A stretch of 4,264 bases of DNA from a virus (lineage: Duplodnaviria; Heunggongvirae; Uroviricota; Caudoviricetes): IMG/VR virus record IMGVR_UViG_2541047119_000017; one strand, written 5' to 3'. A program made the translations under genes and the position numbers. The notes below the pieces were generated by a model. The model had not been told where the DNA came from, ran no database searches, and was given only the letters and a program-made list of their open reading frames with translations. Of this stretch, positions 1 through 2,091 are shown piece by piece; the stretch's first letter is position 1; each line of letters starts with the position of its first letter.

Positions 1-209
1 TATGTAATCATTCTGGCAATGCTTAATGCCGCTGCTTTTTCCAGATTGGTGATATCCTGCTCCAGAGCGGACAGATTTTCAGCCTGCTTAGCCCTGGCTT
101 CATTGGCCCATTTCAGGTCCTGCACCGCCTTAATTTTCTGGTGCATCCACTCATAAAGTTCATCATCGGTATAGTCTGGCGCGATGATGACGGGGTCTCG
201 TTTCTGCAT
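1..209 (-). CDS. Hypothetical protein, N-terminal part only (start codon at 209..207, gene continues past the window start); predicted helical/coiled-coil-like sequence
   Basis: Minus-strand ATG at 209..207 preceded by an AAGGAG Shine-Dalgarno (plus-strand CTCCTT at 215..220, 5-nt spacer). The frame stays open for 69 codons to the window edge (MQKRDPVIIAPDYTDDELYEWMHQKIKAVQDLKWANEARAKQAENLSALEQDITNLEKAAALSIARMIT). All three plus-strand frames in 1..209 are closed by early stops. Not in the supplied ORF track because it runs off the window. Confidence 0.55.
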   Translation of the reverse strand, partial: MQKRDPVIIAPDYTDDELYEWMHQKIKAVQDLKWANEARAKQAENLSALEQDITNLEKAAALSIARMIT

Positions 210-281: not shown

Positions 282-581
282 TTACTCGAGAGGAAATTGG
301 TTATGAATACAATCAAGTTTTCTTGCCCAGAATGTGGTGGCTAAGTCTTTGACACATCCTTTAAGCCGCAGGGCTCTGACAGTTTCGCGGGAGCCATCTG
401 CAAAAATTGTGGTCACCTTGTAACTGAAGATGAGTCCTCGCAGTTCGATGACGAAATCGTTGACAATATCTTCGGTGCACTCACCAGAGACTTTCTGAAG
501 TAAAGGCGCATACCGCTTAGTTACCGCTCTGATAACTCTTACCTGTCCGGCAATGGCGCTGATATCAATATAAAGCGCCAT
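282..581 (-). CDS. Hypothetical protein (99 aa), leftward early-operon cargo of unknown function
   Basis: Only uninterrupted ORF over 282..581 in any frame; no long plus-strand ORF competes. It lies downstream of and on the same strand as the repressor gene, where Qin carries the ydfABC-dicF-dicB cassette. Weak points: no convincing Shine-Dalgarno upstream of the ATG (AAAGAAACAGCG), and I do not recognise the protein. Confidence 0.4.
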   Translation of the reverse strand: MALYIDISAIAGQVRVIRAVTKRYAPLLQKVSGECTEDIVNDFVIELRGLIFSYKVTTIFADGSRETVRALRLKGCVKDLATTFWARKLDCIHNQFPLE

Positions 582-716
582 CGCTGTTTCTTTGCTGATC
601 CCTGGACGCCTTCCATTCTGATGTTTGACTCGCCCACTGAGAAATCCTCTGCTTCCCCTTAACGCCGGGTAGCGGAACTGTTTGCTGAGAACACCGTGCG
701 GTGTCTTGATGAGTAG

Positions 717-746
717 AATTTAGAATAGCCTAAGAGTTATGGTCAA
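717..746 (-). promoter_or_regulatory. Putative pL-like leftward promoter with overlapping operator (OL-like)
   Basis: Minus strand: -35 TTGACC (plus 741..746), 18-bp spacer, -10 TAAATT (plus 717..722). The spacer contains TTAG-aatagc-CTAA (720..733), the same TTAG-N6-CTAA motif seen three times between the repressor and cro-like genes. A second, imperfect copy gTAG-aaaaac-CTAA lies at 756..769. Confidence 0.3.
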
Positions 747-781
747 GCTTTTTGTGTAGAAAAACCTAAGCTTCTTGATGT

Positions 782-810
782 AAAAAACACAAGTATTTGA
801 AAGTTTGTGC
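782..810 (-). terminator. Weak candidate intrinsic terminator downstream of the repressor gene
   Basis: Minus-strand RNA would read gCACAA-acuuucaaauac-UUGUG-UUUUUU: a 5-bp stem (plus one G-U pair), a 12-nt loop and a 6-U tract, about 35 nt after the repressor stop. The stem is short and AT-rich, so this is tentative. Confidence 0.2.
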
Positions 811-844
811 TTTTTATTACAGAGAGTTGCGAAAAAAAGGGGGG

Positions 845-1252
845 TTATTTATTTGCGCTTCTTTTGCGAGCTTTGAGTAGTTCTTCAAAAAGTTTGTTGA
901 AATTCTCAACTCGAGCACGCATCTCTGACAACAGAGCCTTTTGCTCTGACTCAGGCAGTGCGTCGAACAGTTGAAGCAACTCTTTTTGATCTTCTGTCAG
1001 ATTGACTGGCTGATTATCTGGGATCGGTTCGCCTGGTTGCTTATCTTCATCTCCAAAAAGAAGCCAAGTCGGCGAGCACTGAAGCGCCTGGCTCAGTGCG
1101 AATAATCTCTTCCCCGCTGGCTGTGTTTCATCTCTTTCCCATTGAGAAATTGTTACGTGAGCCACTTTGACCAGCTTACCTAATGCGGCCTGAGACAGTT
1201 TTAATTTTTTTCGCCTGTATAAGAGGCGAGCACCGAAGGTTTCGTTTTTCAT
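845..1252 (-). CDS. dicA: DicA-like HTH (XRE/cI-type) prophage repressor, 135 aa
   Basis: ORF 845..1252 (minus). N-terminal HTH signature (LSQAALGKLVKVAHVTISQWERDETQPAGKRLFALSQALQCSPTWLLFGDE) and C-terminal segment (LPESEQ...EMRARVENFNKLFEELLKARKR) closely match my recollection of E. coli Qin DicA (135 aa). Divergent from a cro-like gene across an operator region. No Shine-Dalgarno upstream of the ATG; see the finding on a leaderless transcript. Confidence 0.9.
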   Translation of the reverse strand: MKNETFGARLLYRRKKLKLSQAALGKLVKVAHVTISQWERDETQPAGKRLFALSQALQCSPTWLLFGDEDKQPGEPIPDNQPVNLTEDQKELLQLFDALPESEQKALLSEMRARVENFNKLFEELLKARKRSANK

Positions 1253-1328
1253 ATTAGGTAATTCTAATTTTTCTTGACTTAGGTTTCTCTACGATCTAGT
1301 TTCCTTAGGAAAATCTAAGGGTTTCGAT
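1253..1328. promoter_or_regulatory. Divergent operator/promoter region of the immunity switch (three TTAG-N6-CTAA operator-like sites)
   Basis: O1 aTTAG-gtaatt-CTAAt (1253..1268), O2 cTTAG-gtttct-CTAc (1278..1292, one mismatch), O3 CCTTAG-gaaaat-CTAAGG (1303..1320), centre-to-centre spacing 25 to 26 bp. Plus-strand -35 TTGACT at 1274..1279 with a weak -10 TAGTTT at 1297..1302 for the cro-like gene. Minus-strand -10 TAGAAT (plus 1261..1266) inside O1, immediately upstream of the repressor ATG. Confidence 0.6.
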
Positions 1329-1556
1329 ATGTTGAAAATTGATGCTATAGCGTTTTTTGGCAGCAAAACAAAGCTTGCCAATGTCGCAGGAGTTAGGCTG
1401 GCAAGCGTTGCTGCATGGGGGGAACTGGTTCCTGAAGGTCGCGCGATGCGCCTGCAAGAGGCATCCGGCGGGGAACTTCAGTACGACCCCAAAGTTTATG
1501 ACGAATATCGTAAGGCAAAGCGGGCGGGGCGGTTGAACAATGAAAATCACCACTGA
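1329..1556 (+). CDS. dicC: DicC/Cro-like small DNA-binding regulator, 75 aa
   Basis: ORF 1329..1556 with AAGGG Shine-Dalgarno (1317..1321), 7-nt spacer. Divergent from the DicA-like repressor across the operator region, which is the cro position. Its size and position match DicC of Qin and YdaS-type Cro analogues. The family call is from context and recollection, not an alignment. Confidence 0.8.
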   Translation: MLKIDAIAFFGSKTKLANVAGVRLASVAAWGELVPEGRAMRLQEASGGELQYDPKVYDEYRKAKRAGRLNNENHH

Positions 1557-2091
1557 ACAGGTTTGTGAGGCTCTGGATACCTGGGTATGCCGACCAGGAA
1601 TGACACAGGAGCAGGCGACGATATTAATCACGGAAGCATTCTGGGCTCTGAAAGAACGCCCGAACATCGATGTTCAACGCGTCACGTTTAATGATGGCGA
1701 GGTTGATCAACGGGCGCTGGGCGTTAACCGGGTGAAGATATTCGAACGCTGGAAAGCTATCGACACCAGAGATAAGCGTGACAAATTCACGGCGCTGATT
1801 CCGGCAATTATGGAGGCTATCCGGATCAGCGATTTCAGATTGTATTGTGAAATTACTGACGGAAAAAGCATTACGTACATGATCGCCGGGTTAAACAAAG
1901 AATATGGCGATGTGGTGGAGTCCGGGCTGCTTTTTGCGGATCCAGTTGTTGTGGAACGTGAGACTGACGAGCTTATAGAAAAAGCTATTGCTTTCAAGCA
2001 CGCGTATCGTCAGCAATACCAATATTACTTTGCAGATAAACAAATGTCTGCCAGGGGGGCGTATGAGTATCGATGCACTACGATGGGCTAA
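1540..2091 (+). CDS. ydaT: YdaT-like protein (proposed functional analogue of CII in Rac/CP-933P-type prophages), 183 aa
   Basis: ORF 1540..2091, ATG overlapping the end of the cro-like gene by 17 nt, with a G-rich ribosome-binding region (GGGGCGG, 1523..1533). It occupies the cII position. The N-terminal MKI..E motif and the internal KFTALIPAIMEAI segment resemble what I recall of E. coli YdaT (MKI..., KIQKLIPAILAIL). Tentative family assignment. Confidence 0.65.
   Translation: MKITTEQVCEALDTWVCRPGMTQEQATILITEAFWALKERPNIDVQRVTFNDGEVDQRALGVNRVKIFERWKAIDTRDKRDKFTALIPAIMEAIRISDFRLYCEITDGKSITYMIAGLNKEYGDVVESGLLFADPVVVERETDELIEKAIAFKHAYRQQYQYYFADKQMSARGAYEYRCTTMG

Follow-up and report, generated by a model that had tools for sequence, protein, structure and literature searches.

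In phage lambda, the leftward early promoter lies just past the repressor gene, on the strand of the repressor, under operators that mirror the right-hand ones.

A left-hand promoter with operators like the right-hand ones has also been described in the CP-933P (Sp12) prophage of Escherichia coli O157:H7. The promoter, PL933P, carries the operators OL1-3, which were predicted from the sequence, and in reporter assays it is repressed around 100-fold both by the PaaR2 repressor and by the Cro analogue YdaS (PMC8630535). A second described system is dicBp, the DicA-controlled promoter of the dicB operon in the Qin prophage of E. coli K-12, located upstream of ydfA. Deletion of dicA increases its activity 22-fold and the Rem antirepressor 165-fold; mitomycin C does not induce it, and deletion of dicC leaves it unchanged (PMC10448788). 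DicA is devoid of the Ala-Gly cleavage site and, as relayed in the same work, operators in the K-12 dicA-dicBp spacer were predicted from the sequence by Bejar et al. in 1988 (PMC10448788). The K-12 operator Oc, TTGTTAGTCATAACTAACAA, is bound by DicA in vivo, and a single A-to-C change in its CTAA abolishes the binding (PMC3441716, Yun et al. 2012). Two of the three K-12 right-hand operators predicted from the sequence were without DicA binding in vivo (PMC3441716), so that the motif match alone is no guarantee of occupancy. The DicA site at K-12 dicB is classified as low-evidence, with its location unknown, in a 2020 compilation (PMC7567609). In O157:H7, Pan et al. employed overexpression of DicA and DicC and deletion of dicC; the overexpression of DicA lowered the dicB mRNA, and that of DicC raised the dicB mRNA and lowered the dicA mRNA (PMC6915034).

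The stretch of DNA considered here (the window, 4,264 nucleotides) comes from the same host. Its first 1400 bases match many E. coli O157:H7 chromosomes at 100% in a sequence search and are 99.8% identical to the ‘PPompW’ prophages, which were deposited with Stx2a phages. On the level of sequence, the window represents the dicC-dicA-ydfC region of the prophage located at the ompW site of O157:H7. The region 700..770 is very probably a leftward early promoter, the O157:H7 counterpart of dicBp, held off by the adjoining DicA-family repressor (845..1252). The evidence obtained by computation consists of the operator sites, the promoter hexamers, the homology to dicBp, and the co-variation of the operator with the repressor type. 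The features of the locus are as follows:

1..209, minus strand: ydfC, truncated at the edge of the window (so annotated by RefSeq in the identical O157:H7 region; phrog_1744)
282..581, minus strand: first ORF 3′ of the promoter, 99 aa (ORF list, phrog_21318), replacing the K-12 ydfA-ydfB
303..503, plus strand: antisense ORF with CxxC...CxxC, ‘ECs_2282 family putative zinc-binding protein’ (translation, NCBIfam NF047912)
640..711, minus strand: leader, predicted to be transcribed, near-identical behind all four repressor/operator types
717..722, minus strand: -10 hexamer TAAATT, with an 18-nt spacer to the -35 hexamer (consensus promoter scan)
720..733, minus strand: proximal candidate operator ‘OL1’, an exact TTAG-N6-CTAA, reading TTAGAATAGCCTAA (minus strand TTAGGCTATTCTAA)
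741..746, minus strand: -35 hexamer TTGACC (consensus promoter scan; identical hexamer at the aligned K-12 position)
756..769, minus strand: distal candidate operator ‘OL2’, one mismatch, reading GTAGAAAAACCTAA (minus strand TTAGGTTTTTCTAC)
776..815, minus strand: A/U-rich hairpin with a U-run after it, located 30 nt past the repressor stop; candidate weak dicA terminator
845..1252, minus strand: repressor gene of the DicA family, 135 aa (NCBIfam NF007257, ‘transcriptional repressor DicA’)
1254..1318, plus strand: right-hand operator cluster in the dicA/dicC spacer, with sites at 1254..1267, 1279..1292, and 1305..1318
1329..1556, plus strand: Cro-like gene dicC, 75 aa (NCBIfam NF007282, ‘DicC’; Pfam P22_Cro)

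The repressor matches NF007257 over residues 1-135 of 135 with 241.6 bits (cut-off 101), which makes it a member of the DicA family, and it shares 63% identity with K-12 DicA. The Cro-like protein scores 167.6 bits against NF007282 (cut-off 130). The Pfam scan of the 135-aa repressor returned only the HTH_3 helix-turn-helix and no peptidase S24 domain, a composition which differs from that of the self-cleaving repressors of the lambda type. The matches to the DicA and DicC families, together with the HTH-only repressor, therefore assign the window to a Qin-like lambdoid prophage, as its immunity region.

In RefSeq, the genes annotated leftward from the repressor in the O157:H7 region of identical sequence are a hypothetical gene, ydfC, another hypothetical gene, dicB, and those of a DUF1482 protein and an exonuclease; rightward, the genes of a Cro/CI-family regulator and of a YdaT-family protein precede those for replication. 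Beyond the window, ydfC is followed by a 135-aa ORF, a dicF-like RNA, dicB, and the DUF1482 (ydfD-like) gene. The dicF-like RNA aligns to the K-12 dicF-dicB region; its Rfam score of 43.5 bits is under the gathering score of 48 bits because its 3′ half differs from K-12. The promoter region is thus placed as in Qin, 3′ of dicA, on the same strand, and 5′ of the ydf-dicF-dicB string. The primers used for dicA and dicC in the O157:H7 expression study match the window exactly, and the dicB primer matches the dicB gene located 2 kb leftward, adjoining the window, in L001; the dicB qPCR primers may also amplify other O157 copies of dicB (PMC6915034). The initial annotation of this DNA regarded the downstream minus-strand genes as repressor-controlled. 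Such a description fits the operon, which leads via ydfC and the dicF-like RNA to dicB, but the gene at 282..581 shares its DNA with an antisense ORF.

The motif TTAG-N6-CTAA, whose core is also the core of the K-12 Oc operator, occurs exactly at three places in the window (720, 1254, and 1305), while 0.04 matches are expected; this is an approximately 75-fold excess, and none of 200 shuffles reached three exact matches. When one mismatch is allowed, five matches are found against 1.03 expected, and only 756 and 1279 are added. All five copies are confined to the intergenic regions flanking the repressor gene, either to the dicA/dicC spacer of about 76 bp or to 720..769. The search with two mismatches gives 14 matches against 14.7 expected, which is the level of chance. 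The Oc-type core is found as an inverted repeat overlapping the promoter at 720..733, where both half-sites are perfect. This site, OL1, extends from the 3′ part of the promoter spacer into the -10 box, of which it covers the first three bases. OL2 is separated by 9 nt from the -35 box downstream of it, and the centers of the two sites are 36 bp apart. OL2 differs in a single base from the middle right-hand site (1279..1292, TTAGGTTTCTCTAC), and this identity of 13/14 argues against a chance near-match. Given the unoccupied K-12 sites, the mismatched site at 756 may be weak or dependent on cooperativity.

A narrower pattern, TTAGG-N4-TCTAM, fits all five sites, with the three right-hand ones on the plus strand and the two left-hand ones on the minus strand. 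Each cluster is therefore oriented alike relative to its adjoining outward-facing promoter. The shuffle statistic for this pattern is inflated, because the pattern was refined after the sites had been seen. A third left-hand operator with up to two mismatches was sought in 770..845 and in the leader and was not found, so the set of three operators known from lambda is not reproduced.

The minus-strand promoter around the 720 site, with TTGACC and TAAATT as its hexamers, had been proposed from the letters alone and was returned independently by the consensus scan; the perfect motif at 720..733 and the one-mismatch copy at 756..769 were confirmed as well. The -10 box agrees with the consensus at four of six positions, and this feature and the 18-nt spacer both point against a promoter. 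The scan found three promoter-like sites in the window, compared with 1.7 expected from shuffles. In terms of geometry, the operator at 720..733 lies over the core promoter, covering part of the -10 box (717..722) and of the spacer. A transcription start near A710 (CAUCAAG...) would follow from the geometry of the promoter. The distance from the repressor stop at 845 to the ATG at 581 is 263 bp, in agreement with the gap of 260 bp described earlier, but the gap is not empty: it contains the hairpin, the promoter with its operators, and a conserved leader of about 70 nt. In the PPompW copy LC567818, the -35 box reads TTAACC in place of TTGACC.

The Qin region of MG1655 was retrieved, and the K-12 dicA-ydfA spacer was aligned to the window. 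Judged by position and by sequence similarity, the fragment 700..845 is the counterpart of the K-12 spacer that carries dicBp. The order of the elements in both is dicC, dicA, promoter, leader, ydfC, dicF, and dicB. The -35 hexamer TTGACC is identical, the K-12 site TTAGTCATGGCTAA over the spacer and the -10 box aligns with OL1, and TTAGCTATAGCATA is placed 9 nt upstream of the -35 box, as OL2 is here. The TTAG...CTAA core is shared, and the repressors belong to the same NCBIfam family. The alignment, in which the -35 box and the positions of both operators agree, bears out the likeness to the Qin promoter that had been noticed at the outset. The two loci differ in the spacer and the -10 box (17 nt and TAATCT in K-12, 18 nt and TAAATT here) and in the form of the operator, which is TTAGG-WWWW-TCTAA here and TTAG(T/C)-CAT(A/G)-(A/G)CTAA in K-12. 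The hairpin 3′ of the repressor stop is clearer in the O157 locus, where the ydfA-ydfB genes of K-12 are replaced by another cassette.

The similarity between the window and K-12 is below 55% through the promoter and the operators and changes to near-identity from the predicted +1 onward. The conserved leader stretch of about 60 nt extends from CATCAAGACACCGCACGGTGTTCTCAGCAAACAGTTCCGCTACCC to GCGTTAAGGGGAA, and the near-identity from CATCAA to AAGGGGAA, together with the conserved TTGACC, establishes the homology to a Qin-type dicBp. Across the repressor types, too, the similarity of the leader begins 5-6 nt past the -10 box. With such an onset, the repressor-specific block gives way to the shared block at the predicted start, near A710.

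The shared leader provided the means for a wider comparison. With 26 nt of it as the anchor, 120 viral and eight genome contigs were gathered, from which the loci with a DicA-like gene just upstream of the leader were kept. The resulting 112 loci, which are mostly related E. coli prophages, selected on the leader and not independent of each other, comprise four repressor types (A-D). The identity to the window repressor is 66% for type C and 53% for type D. The -35 box is TTGACC, TTGACG, or TTGCCT, and the spacer has 17-18 nt; types B, C, and D share TAAATT as their -10 box, and that of K-12 reads TAATCT. Left-hand palindromic sites are present in all four types, with centers at -59.5 and at -23.5 or -24.5 from the leader anchor, and the distal one is a perfect palindrome in type C. 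In types B and D there are three right-hand sites, each at a constant distance from the repressor ATG.

The sequence of these sites depends on the type of the repressor. In types A, B, and C, whose recognition helix is (S/A)HV(S/T)(V/I)SQWE, TTAG-N6-CTAA occupies the two left-hand positions and is also found in the right-hand spacer. The repressor of type D has the recognition helix SGSSISLWE; TTAG-N6-CTAA is absent from the type-D loci, and TTGAG-N4-CTCAA, a pattern chosen after inspection of the sequences, is found at three right-hand and two left-hand positions with unchanged offsets. The operator sequence tracks the repressor at both clusters together, and the position is fixed. This is the behavior expected of repressor operators and not of chance matches in A/T-rich DNA.

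The same evidence bears on other explanations of the left-hand sites. The motif copies and hexamers within 717..769 could have arisen by chance in an A/T-rich spacer, the operon being transcribed by read-through or from another promoter. The spacer region is indeed A/T-rich, the hairpin is weak, and the promoter scan exceeds its expectation by little (3 against 1.7). Such an origin is nevertheless extremely improbable in view of the 75-fold excess of the exact motif, its restriction to the two regulatory spacers, and the near-identity of 756..769 to 1279..1292. The invariant positions and co-varying site sequences in the 112 loci, as well as the homology to the experimentally active K-12 dicBp, speak against it likewise. 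The sites could also be used chiefly by the Cro-like DicC, which would shut the leftward operon after the switch, with DicA acting indirectly. Cro-type proteins use the same operators as their repressors, and PL933P is repressed by both YdaS and PaaR2 (PMC8630535). The data from both hosts make this role very unlikely: in K-12, dicBp responds to the deletion of dicA (22-fold up) and not to that of dicC (PMC10448788), in O157 the overexpression of DicC raises, rather than lowers, the dicB mRNA (PMC6915034), and the half-site changes along with the recognition helix of DicA.

The left-hand sites might, alternatively, serve mainly as a distal anchor for a lambda-like loop, tuning the repressor promoter and dicC, and the control of the leftward promoter would then be secondary. 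Octamers are formed by lambda CI and by PaaR2, the O157 CP-933P repressor, which has distant left-hand operators (PMC8630535), and the left and right clusters of the window are mirror images lying about 500 bp apart. This explanation, although less improbable than the preceding two, is still unlikely, given that in each of the four types the proximal site falls precisely on the spacer and the -10 box of a promoter-like element, and that K-12 dicBp is strongly repressed by DicA outside of its native locus (PMC10448788). Looping is also unsupported by the separation of the clusters (461-462 bp for types A and C, 484-487 bp for type D, and 495-502 bp for type B), because it varies even within a type, namely B. 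Helical phasing or a fixed left-right distance was considered as a sign of looping and received no support, as the distances run from 461 to 502 bp.

The comparison with lambda is more distant than that with Qin. The initial annotation had likened the region to pL/OL, and the likeness is valid for the placement of the leftward promoter just beyond the repressor gene and for the operators mirroring the right-hand cluster. It fails in the number of left-hand sites, two here and three in lambda, and in the repressor, which has 135 aa, lacks the RecA-cleavable C-terminal domain, and is therefore non-cleavable; the operator sequences are unrelated. Neither an N gene nor a recognizable nut site was found here (Rfam on the window gave nothing). 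PL933P resembles the present promoter as the left-hand promoter of a lambdoid prophage of the same host, with operators like the right-hand ones. It differs in the PaaR2 repressor family, in the presence of three operators with the repeat consensus GTTTAGTAA, and in the toxin-antitoxin pair, which is located there between the repressor and the left-hand promoter.

In the proposed mechanism, a repressor dimer bound at TTAGGCTATTCTAA (720..733) would exclude the RNA polymerase, because the site overlaps the spacer and the -10 box. A second dimer would occupy the weaker TTAGGTTTTTCTAC (756..769), just 5′ of the -35 box, and probably stabilizes the first one through cooperative contacts. The derepression could be provided by a Rem-type antirepressor or by a flip of the DicA/DicC switch; judging from the K-12 data, cleavage through RecA would not be involved. 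The derepressed transcript would start near A710 and run through the leader into the 99-aa ORF, ydfC, the dicF-like sRNA, and dicB. The earlier expectation that these genes are expressed on induction agrees with the lowering of the dicB mRNA by overexpressed O157 DicA, but the induction is not expected to follow the RecA route of lambda, because the repressor is of the short DicA type without a cleavage domain.

The hairpin downstream of the repressor gene most likely terminates most of the dicA transcripts, and the operon would consequently depend on its own promoter. It consists of an A/U-rich stem of 11 bp, AAAAAGCACAA/UUGUGUUUUUU, a 12-nt loop, and a U6 run after it. The folding energy is -8.0 kcal/mol (z = -3.7 against shuffles), and -11.2 kcal/mol in a context of 75 nt (z = -3.9). 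The stem includes two G-C pairs and one G-U pair, and the U-run is present; the terminator scan made no call at 776..815 because there are only two G-C pairs. The A-run before the hairpin and the T-run after it mean that the structure could act in both directions. The hairpin is found in all type-B variants, and types A and D have comparable hairpins with T-runs; in type C, inspection revealed no evident hairpin at the corresponding place. The type-A variants exhibit compensatory changes in the stem (ATCA/TGAG, GCA/TGC, and ACA/TGT). A weak, possibly bidirectional, dicA terminator is a plausible function of this element. The hairpin with a U-tract that had been placed at 782..810, as a possible insulator of the two transcription units, is real but better positioned at 776..815, and its role as a terminator is only plausible.

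What the locus offers is a new allele of dicBp and the DicA sites that go with it, a promoter-operator already known; it follows textbook lambdoid logic and mostly confirms the published biology of Qin. No new mechanism is implied. The new elements are the base-level coordinates of the predicted DicA sites at a dicB-operon promoter and the tracking of the recognition helix by the operator sequence across four repressor types. Since types B and C share both the helix segment VAHVTISQWERDETQP and the operator TTAGG-N4-TCTAA, they are predicted to cross-repress each other. Such cross-repression is relevant to O157:H7, which carries several prophages bearing dicF/dicB, and the division inhibitors and sRNAs of these prophages affect growth, the viable-but-non-culturable state, and virulence.

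The leader itself has a structural feature at its 5′ end. The hairpin ACACC-GCAC-GGUGU at 691..704 folds and is followed by GUUCCGCUACCCGGCGUUAAGGGGAA. The Rfam search of the whole window, with E up to 1, gave no match; the leader and its hairpin therefore correspond to no described RNA family. A second anchor at the start of ydfA brought in loci with other leaders located directly 3′ of their own -10 boxes. These leaders start with (C/U)AUCAA and continue into a hairpin with unrelated stems (GCAC/GUGC, ACAGC/GCUGU, or AACGA/UCGUU). The occurrence of four different stems in the same place suggests that the 5′ hairpin is functional, and the z-scores of the four classes in single-sequence folding are not significant. 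The pattern suggests a cis-acting RNA element common to the repressor types, such as a stabilizer or a processing or antitermination signal.

A further observation concerns the first gene of the operon. The antisense zinc-ribbon ORF (66 codons) lies exactly codon-for-codon opposite the 99-aa ORF. In the window it is interrupted by a TAA at 342..344, where L079, L061, and L105 have GAA; its intact form scores 57.3 bits against NF047912 (cut-off 37). A tblastn search of the zinc-ribbon protein against the phage collection returned only near-identical copies. The 99-aa ORF has homologues with approximately 55-60% identity in Klebsiella and Citrobacter, and at about 60% identity both antisense frames remain open. 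In homologous loci, the long ORF always runs along the early operon and the zinc-ribbon ORF always against it. In close relatives, five of seven substitutions fall on third codon positions of the plus frame, and the variable columns in the overlap, counted by plus-frame codon position, are 29/13/37, a distribution which does not decide between the frames. The non-overlapped N-terminal part of the minus ORF displays a third-codon-position excess, which favors the minus ORF. The idea that 282..581 is a mere shadow of the zinc-ribbon ORF became less likely in view of this excess and of the divergent homologues open in both frames.

The AlphaFold models are weak for both proteins, with mean pLDDT values of 53.5 (zinc-ribbon ORF) and 61.7 (minus ORF), and a Foldseek search of the minus-ORF model against the PDB gave no match at E ≤0.001. 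In some relatives, one additional T following position 629 joins a GTG located upstream to the 99-aa ORF, extending it to 118 aa; the model of this form has moderate confidence for residues 30-115. The ATG at 581 is the likelier start, because the extension shows poor conservation and is modeled with low confidence. The 99-aa and zinc-ribbon ORFs may be a true sense/antisense overlapping gene pair. That the leader hairpin is a cis-acting element and the two ORFs are a true antisense pair, taken together as something more than routine, is doubtful, if somewhat less so than any of the rival explanations weighed above. If both ORFs are real, the leftward transcription after derepression would collide with a gene expressed in the lysogen.

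The leader of the leftward transcript remains near-identical in sequence downstream of four differing repressor and operator types (types A–D of the DicA repressor, distinguished among the 112 related loci which share this leader):

640..711, minus strand: transcribed leader, with a 5′ hairpin at 691..704

The 5′ end of the leader is formed by CAUCAAG, after which the small hairpin follows. Unrelated stems (GCAC/GUGC, ACAGC/GCUGU and AACGA/UCGUU) are located at the same leader position in other phages of the group, which carry different leaders (loci L137, L143, L145, L173, L182, L201 and L208), and in those phages the hairpin lies directly after each phage's own -10 box. The Rfam search of the window returned no family match to the leader or its hairpin. 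A dicF-like RNA of the window's own prophage is found in L001, which includes the O157:H7 region identical to the window:

L001 2966..3015, minus strand: dicF-like RNA, about 1 kb to the left of the window

It scores 43.5 bits, below the Rfam gathering score of 48 bits; its 3′ half is unlike K-12 dicF, and the flanks are near-identical to K-12.

The right operator cluster (1254..1318) mirrors the left one (720..769). Every site takes the form TTAGG-N4-TCTAM when read along its adjoining outward promoter, and the weaker site of either cluster ends with C, not A. Type D repressors (L009, L010, L023 and others) carry the recognition helix SGSSISLWE, and at the five equivalent positions their operators read TTGAG-N4-CTCAA. 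Between types B and C the recognition-helix segment and the operator form agree, even though the repressors have 66% overall identity, and cross-immunity between the two types is predicted on that basis.

The distance between the clusters is not constant among the type B loci, due to a tract whose length differs between them:

815..840, minus strand: run of C followed by a run of T, CCCCCCTTTTTTT, directly past the repressor stop

This variation alone shifts the left-right distance by up to 7 bp. In the PPompW prophage (LC567818, Stx2_14040; L002), the -35 box reads TTAACC rather than TTGACC (changed base at window 744, G), which may represent a down-mutation of the dicB-operon promoter.

In some relatives, an extra T at window 629/630 brings a GTG further upstream (window 637) into frame with the 99-aa ORF, and the resulting form is 118 aa long (L002 4282..4638). 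This N-terminal extension is probably not coding, because its residues are weakly conserved and modeled with low confidence. The 99-aa ORF itself is overlapped on the opposite strand:

303..503, plus strand: CxxC...CxxC ORF (NCBI 'ECs_2282 family putative zinc-binding protein'), within 282..581 (minus strand)

The two candidate coding frames are exactly antisense, codon for codon. In the window, the zinc-ribbon frame contains a TAA stop at 342..344 in place of the GAA found in relatives, and both frames remain open in Klebsiella and Citrobacter homologues of about 60% identity.

To the right lies a further ORF:

1540..2091, plus strand: CII-like YdaT-family ORF, 183 aa, uninterrupted in the window

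At the 3′ end, this ORF shares sequence with the beginning of the replication gene. Although the frame is open here, RefSeq labels the region of identical sequence (L001 5540..6090) a pseudogene with a frameshift.
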